Origin: Thermoplasmata archaeon
GTDB lineage: Archaea; Thermoplasmatota; Thermoplasmata; Lutacidiplasmatales; UBA184
Length of the DNA: 64,000 nucleotides
Assembly: GCA_052326485.1 (NCBI GenBank)
Contig: JBKQMS010000009.1
Coordinates: 8,206 to 72,205 of the forward strand
Reading direction: 5' to 3'
Positions 2,670-51,027 of the stretch are shown in pieces; position 1 is the first letter of the stretch, and every line of letters begins with the position of its first letter. The notes beneath the pieces were generated by a model. It did no database searches and was not told where the DNA came from. It worked only from the letters and a program-made list of their open reading frames with translations. A program made the translations under genes and the position numbers.

Positions 2670-2871
2670 TCCGCGGACCGCCTACGGCACCGAGGGAAGT
2701 GCGGGGGGCCGGAGTTCCCGGGGGCCGGTCCTGACGACCGGCCCGCCCTTTGAACCGGCGAATGCCCTAGGCAACAGGGTCCTAAGCCCTGCCTCGGTGG
2801 CCCCGCCGGACGCGTCCGACGGATTGGCCGAGCTGGAGCACCCCCGCACCGGAATGATGAGGCGAGAAGAG

Positions 2872-2978
2872 TAGCCCCGGCAGGAGTTTCGGCCGTCGGG
2901 GAATTCGACCTCCGCGGCGTTCGAACCTGCGTCGCGAGATCCAGAGTCTCGCATGATTGGCCACTACACTACGGGGCT
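2872..2978 (-). tRNA. tRNA-Gln(CTG) with a 34-nt intron at T-loop position 59/60
   Basis: Cloverleaf read by hand on the minus strand. It has acceptor AGCCCCG/CGGGGCT plus discriminator A, anticodon stem CGAGA/TCTCG with loop CTCTGGA, and T-stem GCAGG/CCTGC. The T-loop is interrupted by plus-strand 2886-2919. A helix-bulge-helix-bulge-helix is formed by GCAGG:CCTGC, TTCG:CGAA (4 bp) and GCCG:CGGC, with 3-nt bulges AAC and ACT. The spliced product is 73 nt with T-loop TTCGAAT. Confidence 0.85.
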
Positions 2979-3002
2979 ACAACAGTCCCAGCTTCGGGCC
3001 GT

Positions 3003-3009
3003 TGATAAA
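3003..3009 (-). promoter_or_regulatory. TATA box for tRNA-Gln
   Basis: Minus strand reads GTTTATCAAC, ending 24 nt upstream of the tRNA 5' end at 2978. Confidence 0.5.
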
Positions 3010-3136
3010 CGTTACCGCGCGAAGGAGCTTCCGAGCGCCTCCGTCCCAGAAGGGACCACACGACACAAATAGACCGGGACAGTCCCCCGCGCATCCATGC
3101 CGGGAGGACTGCATGGCGGGAGGGGGGTGAATCCAC

Positions 3137-6617: not shown

Positions 6618-6689
6618 GGGCACGTAGATCAGCGGAAGATCGCTGCTTTCGCAAAGCAGAGGTCGGGGGTTCAAATCCCCCCGTGTCCA
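6618..6689 (+). tRNA. tRNA-Ala(CGC)
   Basis: 72-nt cloverleaf read by hand: GGGCACG-TA-GATC-AGCGGAA-GATC-G-CTGCT-TTCGCAA-AGCAG-AGGTC-GGGGG-TTCAAAT-CCCCC-CGTGTCC-A. The G3:U70 Ala identity pair is present and no CCA is encoded. TATA-like CTTAAG lies at 6587-6592. Confidence 0.95.
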
Positions 6690-6835
6690 CTCCCATTCGC
6701 GCCGCGGGACCGCCCTTTGGGGCCGCGGACCTCAACTGACGTCAATCCCGACATAAGAGCTGTTCACCGAATGTCCGGGGAGGTCATCGCGTCGCGCGGG
6801 GAGCCTTCCCGATTGTCGGTTCCCGCGGGCGGTGA

Positions 6836-36102: not shown

Positions 36103-36681
36103 GTGAACGGGTCTGTGTTCGAGCTCGCGTTCGGGCTCGTCCTGGGCTTCTCGTTGACGATCCCGCCCGGTCCGATGAACGCCTTCATCGCGTCCCAGTC
36201 GGTGAGATCGTTCCGGGAGGGAGTCACCGCAGGTGTCGGCGCGATGAGCGCAGACCTCATCCTCGGGGTCCTGGTCTACGTGCTGCATTCTGCGGTCGAC
36301 CTCTCGGCCGGGCTGAGGTGGATCTATCTCGTCGGCGCCGGGGTGATGGTCTACCTCGGGATCGGCCTCCTGAGAGGCGCGTCGAGCCGGTCGCCTCCCG
36401 AGACCGAGGGCATCCGGACCTACGCGAAGGCGCTCGCCCTCGGGGTTTCGAACCCGTTCCAAATCGTCTGGTGGCTTACGGCGGGCCTTGCGTTCGCCTA
36501 CCTCGGAGGCTGGGTCCTCTTTGTGGGCCTCTTCGGAGCCATCGCCGTTTGGGTCGTGGCGTTCCCGTGGGCCGTGCACGCCGAAACCGAGCGGCGGCCG
36601 ACCATCGCCCGGGCGGTGCTCGTCGTATCGGGGGTCGTCATCTTCGCGTTCGCGGCGTACTTCCTCTTCCTCGCGCTCTAG
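36103..36681 (+). CDS. LysE/RhtB family amino-acid exporter
   Basis: N-terminal LTIPPGPMN motif and about six TM segments. GTG start. Confidence 0.85.
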   Translation: MNGSVFELAFGLVLGFSLTIPPGPMNAFIASQSVRSFREGVTAGVGAMSADLILGVLVYVLHSAVDLSAGLRWIYLVGAGVMVYLGIGLLRGASSRSPPETEGIRTYAKALALGVSNPFQIVWWLTAGLAFAYLGGWVLFVGLFGAIAVWVVAFPWAVHAETERRPTIARAVLVVSGVVIFAFAAYFLFLAL

Positions 36682-41873: not shown

Positions 41874-42635
41874 CTAATACCCTCGCCGCCCGACCGTCCG
41901 CTGCCCGCGGGCCTGGCGGAGCTCGTCCCGGAAGCGCTTCGGGGCCCGTTCGGTCGCAACGGTGATCGTCACGGGAGCTAGGCGGCGCGCCTCCCGCCGG
42001 AGGAATCGCTCGGTTCGGGCGCGGTCCTTCTTCCAGCACTCCCGGAGCCAGGTTCCCACCGCTCGCTGGACCCACCGCTCGGGGTCGTCCAAGAGGCGCA
42101 CGAGGAGCGCGAACGGTCGCTCGAGCTCGCCGGCTCGGACCCACGCTCGGAGGGCGTACGTCGAGGCCCGCCGGCGCCAGAGGTTCTTCGAGCTGGTCCA
42201 ATCGAGGAGCTCCCCGAACCGCTCGGGACGGGCCGCGGCCCAGCTCGCGAGAGGACCCGACGCGAGGCTGTCCGAGAGGGCCCAGCCGGTCGCGGCGTCC
42301 ACCCATCGTGCCCCGAGGCGCCAGCCGAGAGGGTCGTCGGCGAGCGGCGGGCGGCCGAGCAGCTCGATCGCCGCCATCTTCTCCTCAAAGAACGAGCCCT
42401 CCCACAGGGACCGGACCAGCTCGCGTTGCTCGGCGCGCGACCTCGTGCCGAGGCGGGACACGGTAGCCCGGACGACCCTTCGCAGGTCAGGCGCGCTCAC
42501 CCCCAGCACCGGGACCGGGGACCCGAGATACGAACGGGGCGACTCGATTCCGGAGGGTCCCCTTTCGGCCCGCAGCTCCCGGAGGATCCGACCGCGTTCC
42601 GTCTCAGCCCACGGGGCCCGACGCTCCGCTACCAT
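41874..42635 (-). CDS. DNA alkylation repair protein (AlkD-like HEAT repeat family)
   Basis: Pattern WALSDSL, SKNLWRRRAS, DPERWVQRAVGTWLRE. ATG42635 overlaps the upstream stop (ATGGTAG). Confidence 0.85.
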   Translation of the reverse strand: MVAERRAPWAETERGRILRELRAERGPSGIESPRSYLGSPVPVLGVSAPDLRRVVRATVSRLGTRSRAEQRELVRSLWEGSFFEEKMAAIELLGRPPLADDPLGWRLGARWVDAATGWALSDSLASGPLASWAAARPERFGELLDWTSSKNLWRRRASTYALRAWVRAGELERPFALLVRLLDDPERWVQRAVGTWLRECWKKDRARTERFLRREARRLAPVTITVATERAPKRFRDELRQARGQRTVGRRGY

Positions 42636-50953: not shown

Positions 50954-51027
50954 AGCCACTGGAGGGACTTGAACCCCCGACCTGCTGATTACGAATCAGC
51001 CGCTCTGCCAAACTGAGCTACAGTGGC
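50954..51027 (-). tRNA. tRNA-Thr(CGT)
   Basis: 74-nt cloverleaf read by hand: GCCACTG-TA-GCTC-AGTTTGGCA-GAGC-G-GCTGA-TTCGTAA-TCAGC-AGGTC-GGGGG-TTCAAGT-CCCTC-CAGTGGC-T. Confidence 0.95.

Follow-up and report, generated by a model that had tools for sequence, protein, structure and literature searches.

A tRNA-Gln(CUG) gene with a 34-nt T-loop intron and an adjacent, twice-interrupted tRNA-Leu(UAG) gene in the archaeal order Lutacidiplasmatales

The tRNA-Gln(CUG) gene and its precursor

The window, which is the whole stretch of 64,000 nucleotides analysed here, carries a tRNA-Gln(CUG) gene on the minus strand at 2872–2978. The precursor body of 107 nt runs from A1 at 2978 to the discriminator A at 2872, and CCA is not encoded. 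The 5' exon (2920–2978, minus strand; positions 1–59, 59 nt) contains the anticodon CTG at 2942–2944, which ARAGORN places at position 35 of the spliced sequence, and the 3' exon (2872–2885, minus strand; 14 nt) extends from position 60 to the discriminator at position 73. Between positions 59 and 60 lies an intron of 34 nt (2886–2919, minus strand) that forms a GC-rich hairpin. An earlier sequence-only reading of the window had given the minus-strand sequence and the limits of the exons and of the 34-nt insert exactly; it had also proposed that removal of the insert yields a 73-nt tRNA-Gln(CUG) cloverleaf, with a tRNA search of the spliced sequence as the check. When the insert was deleted in silico, ARAGORN called a flawless tRNA-Gln(ctg) cloverleaf of 73 nt with seven of seven acceptor pairs, five of five T-stem pairs and the T-loop TTCGAAT. 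The analysis confirms 2872–2978 as a real tRNA-Gln(CUG) gene with a 34-nt intron at 59/60.

The CUG anticodon, an A1-U72 pair and an enlarged D-loop (AGUGGCCAA) are all present, and these features recur in the tRNA-Gln of many archaeal lineages among the matches listed by a search whose pattern left both gene ends unconstrained. All complete tRNA-Gln genes among the matches listed begin with A and end in ...CTA, in agreement with the A1-U72 pair noted in the sequence-only reading, and three genes clipped by contig ends also begin with A and are consistent as far as they are readable. In the archaeal Glu-tRNA(Gln) pathway the A1-U72 pair serves as an identity element. CAG, the codon read by this anticodon, makes up 37 of the 46 Gln codons in six genes of the window.

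The precursor folds into a strict 3-4-3 hBHBh' (bulge-helix-bulge, BHB) motif in both the MFE and the centroid structures (-44.8 kcal/mol, z = -1.96), in which the T-stem GCAGG:CCTGC is followed by the bulge ACU, the helix UUCG:CGAA, the bulge AAC on the opposite strand and the helix GCCG:CGGC. The 5' strand of the central helix is formed by U54, U55, C56 and G57 of the T-loop (2922–2925, minus strand) and its 3' strand by the intron-borne CGAA (2888–2891, minus strand), a position at which orthologues carry CGAA, CGGA, CGAG, CGGG or UGGA. The 5' bulge (2919–2921, minus strand) consists of A58, A59 and the first intron nucleotide, C(i1), with the predicted cut at 2920/2919; its third nucleotide is C, A, G or U in orthologues. 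The 3' bulge (2885–2887, minus strand) consists of A, C and U60, with the predicted cut at 2886/2885; its first two nucleotides are AC, AU, UA, AA or GC in orthologues and U60 is invariant. The outer helix h' pairs GCCG (2915–2918, minus strand) with CGGC (2892–2895). A strict BHB, with predicted cuts behind the second nucleotide of either bulge, had been put forward from the letters of the window; these folds support it, and the BHB is kept in the 56 distinct orthologues described below.

Upstream of the gene lies the block GGTAACGTTTATCAAC (3001–3016, minus strand; -38 to -23 from A1), which combines a BRE-like element with the TATA sequence TTTATCA (3003–3009). As the sequence-only reading had stated, 24 nt separate TTTATCA from A1. 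A GGYAACGTTTATCAAC block occupies -38 to -23 in nearly all of the 62 loci compared, within a flank that is otherwise about 80% G+C. At -31 to -28 the A+T fraction reaches 0.84–1.0, as against about 0.2 in the flanks; the distance of the block from the gene does not vary among the 62 loci, and GT at -2/-1 of the tRNA-Gln gene is invariant. With these BRE and TATA features the block is a predicted archaeal promoter.

The neighbouring tRNA-Leu(UAG) gene

A hidden tRNA-Leu(UAG) gene (2700–2847, minus strand; anticodon TAG at 2782–2784) begins 24 nt downstream of tRNA-Gln and had been missed by the sequence-only reading. Its precursor of 148 nt contains two introns at non-canonical positions, one of 27 nt between A21 and C22 in the D-loop (2797–2823, minus strand) and one of 35 nt at 59/60 in the T-loop (2714–2748, minus strand), the latter with a 3' bulge NNU. 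ARAGORN and Rfam found nothing in the precursor at 2700–2847, and ARAGORN called a tRNA-Leu(tag) of 86 nt only once both introns had been removed. It occurs in 61 of the 62 loci, and in the exception, L058, it is cut off by the end of the sequence examined. The spacer between the two genes (2848–2871, minus strand) is 24 nt long here and 24–36 nt in orthologues. No second TATA box was seen in this spacer, which suggests that the two tRNAs may be transcribed as one dicistronic RNA.

The D-loop intron of tRNA-Leu is associated with a BHB composed of h CUC:GAG, the 3' bulge ACC, H GGCC:GGCC, the 5' bulge AAU and h' CCG:CGG, and all four H pairs are found in 58 of 58 distinct introns. One relative (L027) carries a natural allele that lacks this intron and reads GGCCAA|CGAGG, which is the predicted junction; it is a record of a gain or loss event. 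At the T-loop intron the central helix consists of U54:A, U55:G and C56:G together with a conserved A57.G mismatch at the helix end. Three of the four pairs are formed in 56 of 59 distinct introns and all four in the other three. Since the strict BHB has four Watson-Crick or wobble central pairs, the intron at 2714–2748 falls outside the strict class, and its motif is predicted to work like a BHB that is slightly off the strict form.

Conservation in Lutacidiplasmatales

The tRNA-Gln arrangement was found in at least 61 other "Thermoplasmata" MAGs (GTDB species representatives). The carriers include UBA184 and Candidatus Lutacidiplasma silvani, and the clade is therefore the order Lutacidiplasmatales. 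In 57 loci the genes that flank tRNA-Gln are syntenic. All 62 genomes have identical exons except for one anticodon-stem variant in two of them, and the intron has 34 nt in 61 genomes and 33 nt in one. The interior of the intron has a median identity of 45%, with 56 distinct introns, and the orthologue alignment contained no conserved sequence block within the intron beyond the BHB. Each of the 56 distinct introns retains a core hairpin of 7–11 bp, with a mean z of -1.74. The sequence-only reading had described the intron as a T-arm mimic. This does not hold as a family-wide feature, as the loop TCGAATT is kept in the closest relatives only, in the form TCGRAYT (L023, L028, L051, L068, L070, and L120).

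An alignment of 61 sequences, of which 56 are distinct, was used to follow the BHB. Every alignment cell of the central helix is paired (100%), with 31 changes that are all wobble-only, and in a control in which the 3' partners were slid by 1–3 columns the pairing dropped to 19–50%. The observed covariation score of the alignment was matched by none of 500 shuffles. The helix h (the 5-bp T-stem) is invariant and the bulge lengths are constant in orthologues. In h' the pair G61:C87 never changes, the three pairs that follow it form in 57–88% of the sequences, and 17 double (compensatory) changes were observed; a subgroup of eight sequences favours a register of h' with one additional unpaired C. 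RNAalifold recovered the cloverleaf and the central helix and did not recover h', because the register of h' differs between sequences. In MFE folds of the whole precursor the BHB was present in only 15 of the 56 GC-rich orthologues, because GC-rich alternative pairings compete with it. Whole-precursor MFE folds were replaced as the test in orthologues by constrained folds and by folds of the isolated T-arm plus intron; in the isolated folds the BHB was the MFE structure in 31 of 56 and lay within 4.7 kcal/mol of it in the remainder.

Homologues without an intron provide a view of the expected product. Near-identical intron-less tRNA-Gln genes score 55.6–64.2 bits against the Rfam tRNA model, and two intron-less homologues match the predicted acceptor stem and T-arm exactly. 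The T-loop UUCGAAU that results from the predicted boundaries is that of nearly all intron-less tRNA-Gln genes among the matches listed, which bears out the earlier placement of the intron at 59/60 with a canonical T-loop. No intron-less CUG copy from an intron-bearing genome occurs among the at least 120 matches listed. In other high-GC Thermoplasmatota (L097, L107) the tRNA-Gln gene is intron-less, so that the suggestion of a lineage-restricted marker is sustained, and the introns of tRNA-Gln and tRNA-Leu are simple, alignable markers of the lineage.

Alternative readings, processing and known introns

The sequence-only reading had expected default scans to miss the tRNA-Gln gene. This is true of Rfam, whose tRNA model gives the precursor 23.5 bits against a threshold of 29, but not of ARAGORN, which on the unspliced window calls a mis-bounded 72-nt tRNA-Gln with mismatched stems at 2907–2978 and makes the same wrong-ended call in 46 of 61 orthologous loci. 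If these calls, and the alignment of the same span by Rfam, were taken at face value, the gene would be an uninterrupted tRNA-Gln of 72 nt and the supposed intron would be its 3' T-stem and acceptor strand. Only 4–5 of 7 acceptor pairs and 2–3 of 5 T-stem pairs form in such a molecule, its score lies below the Rfam threshold, and among orthologues no part of the locus varies more than its 3' half, whereas the true 3' exon, which lies 34 nt beyond, does not change. Stem mismatches, Rfam score and orthologue variability effectively refute this reading, which is left with practically no probability. Removal of the intron at displaced boundaries such as 58/59 or 56/57, with a different T-loop as the result, is allowed on paper by the A-rich bulges (AAC, AAAC) and, in tRNA-Leu, by TTCAAA...GGGAAC|T, which permits alternative 7-nt loops. 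It is nevertheless very improbable, as 59/60 alone obeys the rule of a cut after the second bulge nucleotide on both strands, 59/60 alone gives the UUCGAAU of almost all intron-less homologues, and the two bulge nucleotides that precede U60 vary whereas U60 itself never does.

Equally improbable is a tRNA-Gln pseudogene broken by a 34-nt insertion, beside an equally dead tRNA-Leu, with other copies serving the cell. A second, intron-less tRNA-Gln(CUG) copy could lie beyond the matches listed, and lineages with alpha'2-type enzymes are said to be without non-canonical introns (PMC5829648). Against this, the exons have stayed the same across the 62 genomes (apart from the one stem variant) while the inserts diverged to 45% identity and yet kept their length, BHB and hairpin; the promoter is conserved, CAG is the main Gln codon, and the matches listed hold no intron-less copy from these genomes. 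A second function of a spliced intron or of the two-tRNA locus is unlikely, if less so than the preceding readings; it might lie in a stable circular RNA of 34 nt, in a checkpoint on processing, in shielding the tRNA 3' half against integrating elements, or in an overlapping reading frame. The fixed intron length of 34 nt across the order and the indels of the spacer and the Leu introns, which are mostly multiples of three, leave room for it. In addition, 57 of 61 loci have a total length of 0 mod 3, a sense ORF runs from position 25 of tRNA-Gln through tRNA-Leu without interruption in all 61, and none of 24 stop trinucleotides of the variable parts falls in that frame. However, stops are rare in all frames at 74% G+C, selection for BHB stability alone would fix the length and the hairpin, and the intron has no conserved block beyond the BHB. 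An overlapping protein-coding gene is rejected, because the variability does not follow a codon-position period and translation of the variable parts yields no conserved sequence; the frame pattern is taken as a by-product and a curiosity.

The locus thus very probably holds a functional tRNA-Gln(CUG), the decoder of the major Gln codon CAG in a high-GC soil archaeon of Lutacidiplasmatales, with a protein-spliced 34-nt intron at 59/60. Transcription would start from the conserved BRE/TATA promoter some 25–30 nt upstream of tRNA-Gln and probably continue through tRNA-Leu(UAG). Folding and comparison show that in the precursor U54–G57 of the T-loop pair with CGAA near the 3' end of the intron, and that the resulting 4-bp helix with its two 3-nt bulges sits between the T-stem and the intron hairpin as a strict hBHBh', with the geometry of a canonical 37/38 intron but on the T-arm. 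By the established archaeal pathway, EndA would cut after the second nucleotide of each bulge, an RtcB-type ligase would join A59 to U60 and circularise the intron, and RNase P, RNase Z and the CCA-adding enzyme would finish the ends. With the intron in place the T-loop could presumably not meet the D-loop, and formation of the elbow and modification of the T-loop would therefore follow splicing. The tRNA-Leu(UAG) would be processed likewise at its two sites, in the D-loop and at 59/60.

For annotation, this means that ARAGORN and Rfam mis-bound or miss the decoder of the main Gln codon and miss tRNA-Leu(UAG) wholly, so that tRNA complements and completeness estimates for widespread acid-soil archaea can be wrong. 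The archaeal mode of tRNAscan-SE 2.0 includes a BHB routine (PMC8450103). A T-arm/acceptor scan of the window returned four tRNAs and two chance matches within coding sequence (36364–36511 and 42120–42227), and the scan of 446 kb of orthologous loci returned no further tRNA species with a T-loop intron.

BHB introns at 59/60 are already known from Crenarchaeota and ARMAN-2 and are previously undescribed in Lutacidiplasmatales; the paper that defined the order makes no mention of introns. The present cases are clean, order-wide introns at non-canonical positions, with a strict BHB, outside the Crenarchaeota and DPANN in which such introns are usually discussed. The DPANN system reported in 2011 (PMC3239211) likewise has a 59/60 T-loop intron with a BHB built from T-loop nucleotides and the 3' end of the intron; its Pro case is a strict 3-4-3 motif as in tRNA-Gln here, and several non-canonical introns per tRNA are possible as in tRNA-Leu here. 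It differs in its three-unit epsilon2 endonuclease of broad specificity, in the tRNAs concerned and in a Cys intron with a relaxed hBH motif, whereas the present host is a Thermoplasmatota order with an intron of 34 nt and order-wide conservation. The non-canonical BHB introns of Crenarchaeota/Thermoproteales share the splicing logic and positions that include 59/60 (PMC4090602, PMC4033280, PMC8450103). Multiple introns per gene also occur in both, up to three per tRNA in Crenarchaeota/Thermoproteales (PMC4090602, PMC4033280; tRNAscan-SE 2.0 survey PMC8450103), and precursors elude plain tRNA finders in both. Those archaea differ in having an (alpha-beta)2 EndA with a specific loop and many relaxed motifs, in contrast to the strict tRNA-Gln motif.

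According to reviews, the alpha4 and alpha'2 enzymes that characterise this part of Euryarchaeota go with introns at the canonical position only (PMC4090602, PMC5829648), and 'Cluster II' Euryarchaeota, which include this lineage, are reported to have alpha'2 enzymes (PMC5829648). An EndA-like gene was not found in the window or in 123 loci by a catalytic-motif regex and by tblastn with an approximate probe, a weak negative that covers these sequences alone. We would suggest, quite tentatively and with more doubt than confidence, that Lutacidiplasmatales have kept three or more tRNA introns at non-canonical positions, within a single operon of two tRNA genes, since the origin of the order, despite this reported alpha'2 and canonical-only background. 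If so, either a plain alpha'2 EndA is able to process BHBs on the T-arm and the D-arm in vivo, one of the introns having an A.G mismatch in its central helix, or the endonuclease of the order is altered; it would also suggest that these abundant acid-soil archaea harbour more disrupted tRNA genes than are on record. The locus is a natural test case for asking whether it is the type of endonuclease, or only the shape of the motif, that restricts where introns can lie.

Among euryarchaeal cases, pre-tRNA-Glu(UUC) of Methanopyrus kandleri resembles tRNA-Leu here in having a D-loop intron and a second intron (PMC5829648). Its D-loop motif is a relaxed HBh' that is poorly cut by an alpha'2-type enzyme in vitro (PMC5829648), whereas tRNA-Leu has a full 3-4-3 D-loop BHB by way of the alternative CUC:GAG helix, and the second intron lies at 37/38 in M. 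kandleri and at 59/60 in tRNA-Leu. Canonical euryarchaeal 37/38 introns show the same strict hBHBh' as tRNA-Gln with identical geometry, on the anticodon arm instead of the T-arm: in both, a 5-bp stem carries a 7-nt loop that is cut between nucleotides 6 and 7, and loop nucleotides 1–4 pair with the 3' end of the intron. Haloferax volcanii has such 37/38 introns in tRNA-Trp, tRNA-Met and tRNA-Gln(UUG), the last of 31 nt (PMC7714728). Identity of the present intron with this 31-nt intron was considered and rejected, as a Halobacteriales MAG (L048) carries the 31-nt tRNA-Gln(UUG) intron at 37/38.

Anatomy of the tRNA-Gln(CUG) gene and its detection

The minus strand at 2872–2978 carries a tRNA-Gln(CUG) gene interrupted at tRNA positions 59/60, with a 5′ exon of 59 nt (2920–2978), an intron of 34 nt (2886–2919) and a 3′ exon of 14 nt (2872–2885); no CCA is encoded at its 3′ end. 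The sequence-only reading had transcribed 2978–2872 and placed the gene exactly as found in the window, and the 73-nt cloverleaf that it expected on removal of the insert is drawn by ARAGORN as a flawless tRNA-Gln(ctg) with 7/7 acceptor pairs, 5/5 T-stem pairs and the T-loop TTCGAAT. Unspliced, the 107-mer has a folding energy of −44.8 kcal/mol (z = −1.96 relative to dinucleotide shuffles). Its minimum free energy (MFE) and centroid structures agree on the order of elements, in which the T-stem GCAGG:CCTGC is followed by a 3-nt ACU bulge on the 3′ strand, the 4-bp helix UUCG:CGAA, a 3-nt AAC bulge on the 5′ strand and an intron helix GCCG:CGGC running into a hairpin. The textbook bulge-helix-bulge (BHB) that had been proposed is therefore present in both structures as a strict 3-4-3 hBHBh′ motif. 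The layout is identical to that of the canonical 37/38 site, although in another arm, the T-arm; at both sites the first four loop nucleotides are base-paired to the intron's 3′ end, with cleavage between the sixth and seventh.

ARAGORN reports a tRNA-Gln at 2907–2978, a 72-nt model whose 3′ half is intron sequence and whose acceptor and T stems contain mismatches. The Rfam tRNA model recovers two ordinary tRNAs from the window, Ala-CGC (6618–6690) and Thr-CGU (50954–51027), and the tRNA-Gln gene is absent from its matches; a permissive Rfam search gives the same wrong span of 2907–2978 at 23.5 bits (threshold 29). The earlier expectation that default scans miss the gene thus holds for Rfam but not for ARAGORN, which calls a tRNA-Gln with wrong ends, so that the gene is mis-bounded or missed rather than strictly invisible. 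Over 61 orthologous loci, ARAGORN returned a wrong-ended tRNA-Gln in 46 and a tRNA-Leu in one. The archaeal mode of tRNAscan-SE 2.0 includes a dedicated BHB step (PMC8450103).

A sense open reading frame of 90 codons (2682–2954, minus) begins within the tRNA-Gln gene and stays open through the tRNA-Leu gene behind it in 61/61 loci, and the length differences of spacer and introns among orthologues are for the most part multiples of three. Coding was considered and rejected, since the orthologous loci showed neither codon periodicity nor conservation of the translated variable parts. The frame and the length pattern are probably by-products of 74% G+C and structural constraint.

Conservation of the intron in Lutacidiplasmatales

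A scan covering a single genome for each GTDB species, its pattern limited to the D-arm and anticodon loop, yielded at least 120 loci. Among the matches listed, the window included, at least 62 genomes have a tRNA-Gln insert at the same place, which is 34 nt long in 61 of them and 33 nt long in the other. The inserts comprise 56 distinct sequences; acceptor, anticodon stem, variable region and T-arm do not differ among the 62, except for one anticodon-stem variant in two genomes. The 62 genomes, most of them from soil, are "Thermoplasmata archaeon" MAGs and include UBA184, Candidatus Lutacidiplasma silvani AcS3-62 and other AcS/SubAcS MAGs. They belong to the order Lutacidiplasmatales according to NCBI taxonomy, as also placed by Sheridan et al. 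2022 (PMC9287336). Synteny extends to the flanking metallophosphoesterase and ABC-transporter genes in 57 loci. Closest to the window among the matches listed are L070 (86–96% amino-acid identity), L068 (UBA61), and L023, L028 and L051 (UBA184), and the contig itself recurs in a Logan assembly and two NCBI metagenome assemblies. At L097 and L107, sampled from other high-GC Thermoplasmatota, tRNA-Gln(CUG) is intron-less with no tRNA-Leu behind it. Some 3.6 kb away from the tRNA-Gln gene, on the plus strand, is the ordinary tRNA-Ala(CGC); ARAGORN found it in 29/61 orthologous loci, which indicates a conserved neighbourhood. MAG SMAG_U15060 contains the tRNA-Gln/tRNA-Leu locus twice, in differing versions with unlike introns on separate contigs (L045 and L120), and the bin is probably a mixture of two related populations.

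The structure was compared across the window and 60 orthologues (61 sequences, 56 distinct). All cells of the central helix (54–57:88–91) are paired, and each of its 31 changes is wobble-compatible (CGAA, CGGA, CGAG, CGGG and UGGA against an invariant UUCG). In the intron-side helix the first pair (G61:C87) is invariant and pairs 2–4 are retained in 57–88% of sequences with 17 double changes. The bulges are three nucleotides long in every sequence; their exon members A58, A59 and U60 are unchanging and their intron members vary. Over the entire structure 97.3% of cells are paired, compared with only 19–50% when the 3′ partners were slid by 1–3 columns, and none of 500 column shuffles matched the observed covariation score. 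The MFE fold of the whole precursor contains the BHB motif in just 15/56 sequences because GC-rich alternative pairings compete. When the T-arm and intron were folded in isolation, the strict BHB was the MFE structure in 31/56; in a further 11 the central helix and the two bulges were retained and the register of the intron-side helix differed slightly, and in all sequences the BHB was reachable within 4.7 kcal/mol of the MFE. The intron interior has a median identity of 45% and always forms a hairpin of 7–11 bp (mean z = −1.74, 96% below zero). Fold and orthologues together bear out the original interpretation of a tRNA-Gln(CUG) with a strict-BHB intron at 59/60. The feature is real and conserved, and very probably functional.

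The TATA box noted upstream corresponds to a conserved A+T-rich block, GGYAACGTTTATCAAC, which almost every one of the 62 loci has at −38 to −23 relative to A1. At −31 to −28 the A+T fraction reaches 0.84–1.0, compared with roughly 0.2 in flanking sequence, and GU at −2/−1 is invariant. This pattern fits an archaeal BRE/TATA promoter, with a predicted start site that would leave a very short leader. CAG makes up 37 of the 46 glutamine codons in six window genes, so tRNA-Gln(CUG) decodes the main glutamine codon. Among the matches listed there was no CUG copy without an intron from these genomes, a result that is only suggestive. Intron-less tRNA-Gln homologues score 55.6–64.2 bits with the Rfam tRNA model, and at the scan locus L005 eight stem positions are unlike those of the spliced product. 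The complete tRNA-Gln genes recovered all begin with A and finish with CUA, in line with the remark on an A1-U72 pair, and three genes truncated at contig ends agree as far as readable. In two 'Thermoplasmatales' MAGs of 67–69% G+C (L100 and L113), an intron-less tRNA-Gln(UUG) matches the predicted spliced tRNA-Gln(CUG) exactly in acceptor stem and T-arm; it may represent the UUG isoacceptor in the same lineage or in a sister one. An archaeal-type tRNA-Gln(CUG) on a contig of an 'uncultured Bacteroidales bacterium' MAG (L085) is near-identical to that of a Methanosarcinales MAG (L093), and the contig is likely mis-binned.

A tRNA-Leu(UAG) gene with two introns downstream

A conserved GCGGGGGUGCUCC start 24–36 nt past tRNA-Gln in the orthologues pointed to a tRNA-Leu. 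In the window, a tRNA-Leu(UAG) gene with a 148-nt precursor lies at 2700–2847 (minus), 24 nt downstream of tRNA-Gln, and has two non-canonical introns: one of 27 nt in the D-loop between A21 and C22 (2797–2823) and one of 35 nt in the T-loop at 59/60 (2714–2748). ARAGORN and Rfam give no match to the precursor, intact or without either single intron; with both introns out, ARAGORN finds an 86-nt tRNA-Leu(tag). The precursor fold has z = −2.92. The D-loop BHB consists of an exon-side helix CUC:GAG, which draws on the second CUC of the D-loop, a 3′ bulge ACC, a central helix GGCC:GGCC, a 5′ bulge AAU and an intron-side helix CCG:CGG; after splicing, GAG would re-pair with the D-stem CUC. The central helix is fully paired in 58/58 distinct orthologous introns (GGCC, GGCU or GGUC against GGCC). 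In the T-loop BHB three of four central pairs form in every case, and the position opposite A57 is a conserved G in 55/59 distinct introns and a pairing U in three; the motif deviates slightly from the strict form. The nucleotide selected opposite A57 forms no standard pair.

The tRNA-Leu(UAG) is found in 61/62 loci, the exception (L058) being truncated by the end of the available stretch. At L027 (781–1050, Thermoplasmata MAG JA4.bin45) the tRNA-Leu is without the D-loop intron, and its sequence there, GGCCAA|CGAGG, is exactly the junction that the BHB predicts; L027 is a natural allele of intron gain or loss. No second TATA box was seen in the spacer between the two genes, which suggests a single dicistronic transcript.

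Proposed processing and introns known at 59/60

The analysis shows the gene anatomy, the BHB motifs with their conservation, and the promoter block; processing would follow the established archaeal pathway. The splicing endonuclease EndA would cleave after the second nucleotide of each bulge, RtcB would ligate the exons and circularise the intron, and the ends would be trimmed and completed by RNase P, RNase Z and the CCA-adding enzyme. Splicing should precede elbow formation and T-loop modifications; the T-loop would be unable to dock on the D-loop earlier because U54–G57 are paired in the precursor. Catalytic-motif and tblastn probes with an approximate query found no EndA-like gene in the 64-kb window or the loci compared.

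Introns of this type are already known. A published list of non-canonical positions includes 59/60 (PMC4090602), and ARMAN-2 has a relaxed 59/60 intron in tRNA-Cys(GCA), cleaved in vitro by its own epsilon2 endonuclease, and a strict-BHB intron at 59/60 in tRNA-Pro(GGG) (PMC3239211), the latter matching the window tRNA-Gln(CUG) in motif and position. Reviews tie non-canonical introns to (alpha-beta)2 and epsilon2 enzymes, and assign strict BHBs at the canonical position to alpha4/alpha′2 Euryarchaeota, the cluster containing Thermoplasmata among them (PMC4090602, PMC4033280, PMC5829648). The Lutacidiplasmatales genome paper used tRNAscan-SE 2.0 and never mentions introns (PMC9287336). The novelty lies in the host order, in conservation across the whole of it and in the grouping of three such introns within a single locus of two tRNA genes. 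A 31-nt intron has been reported in Haloferax tRNA-Gln(UUG) (PMC7714728); identity with the window intron was rejected, as a Halobacteriales MAG (L048) has the former at 37/38.

Inserts at or near 59/60 of tRNA-Gln(UUG) also occur in MAGs labelled Nanoarchaeota (L054, 30 nt), "Methanosarcinales" (L059, 13 nt, with an additional 37/38 intron) and Woesearchaeota (L042, two introns), which indicates that the site has been struck repeatedly; the palindromic T-loop UUCGAA may make it a recurrent insertion site. A long insert at or near 59/60 of tRNA-Gln(UUG) was also observed in an unclassified archaeon (L089), and the inserts of these four loci look independent.
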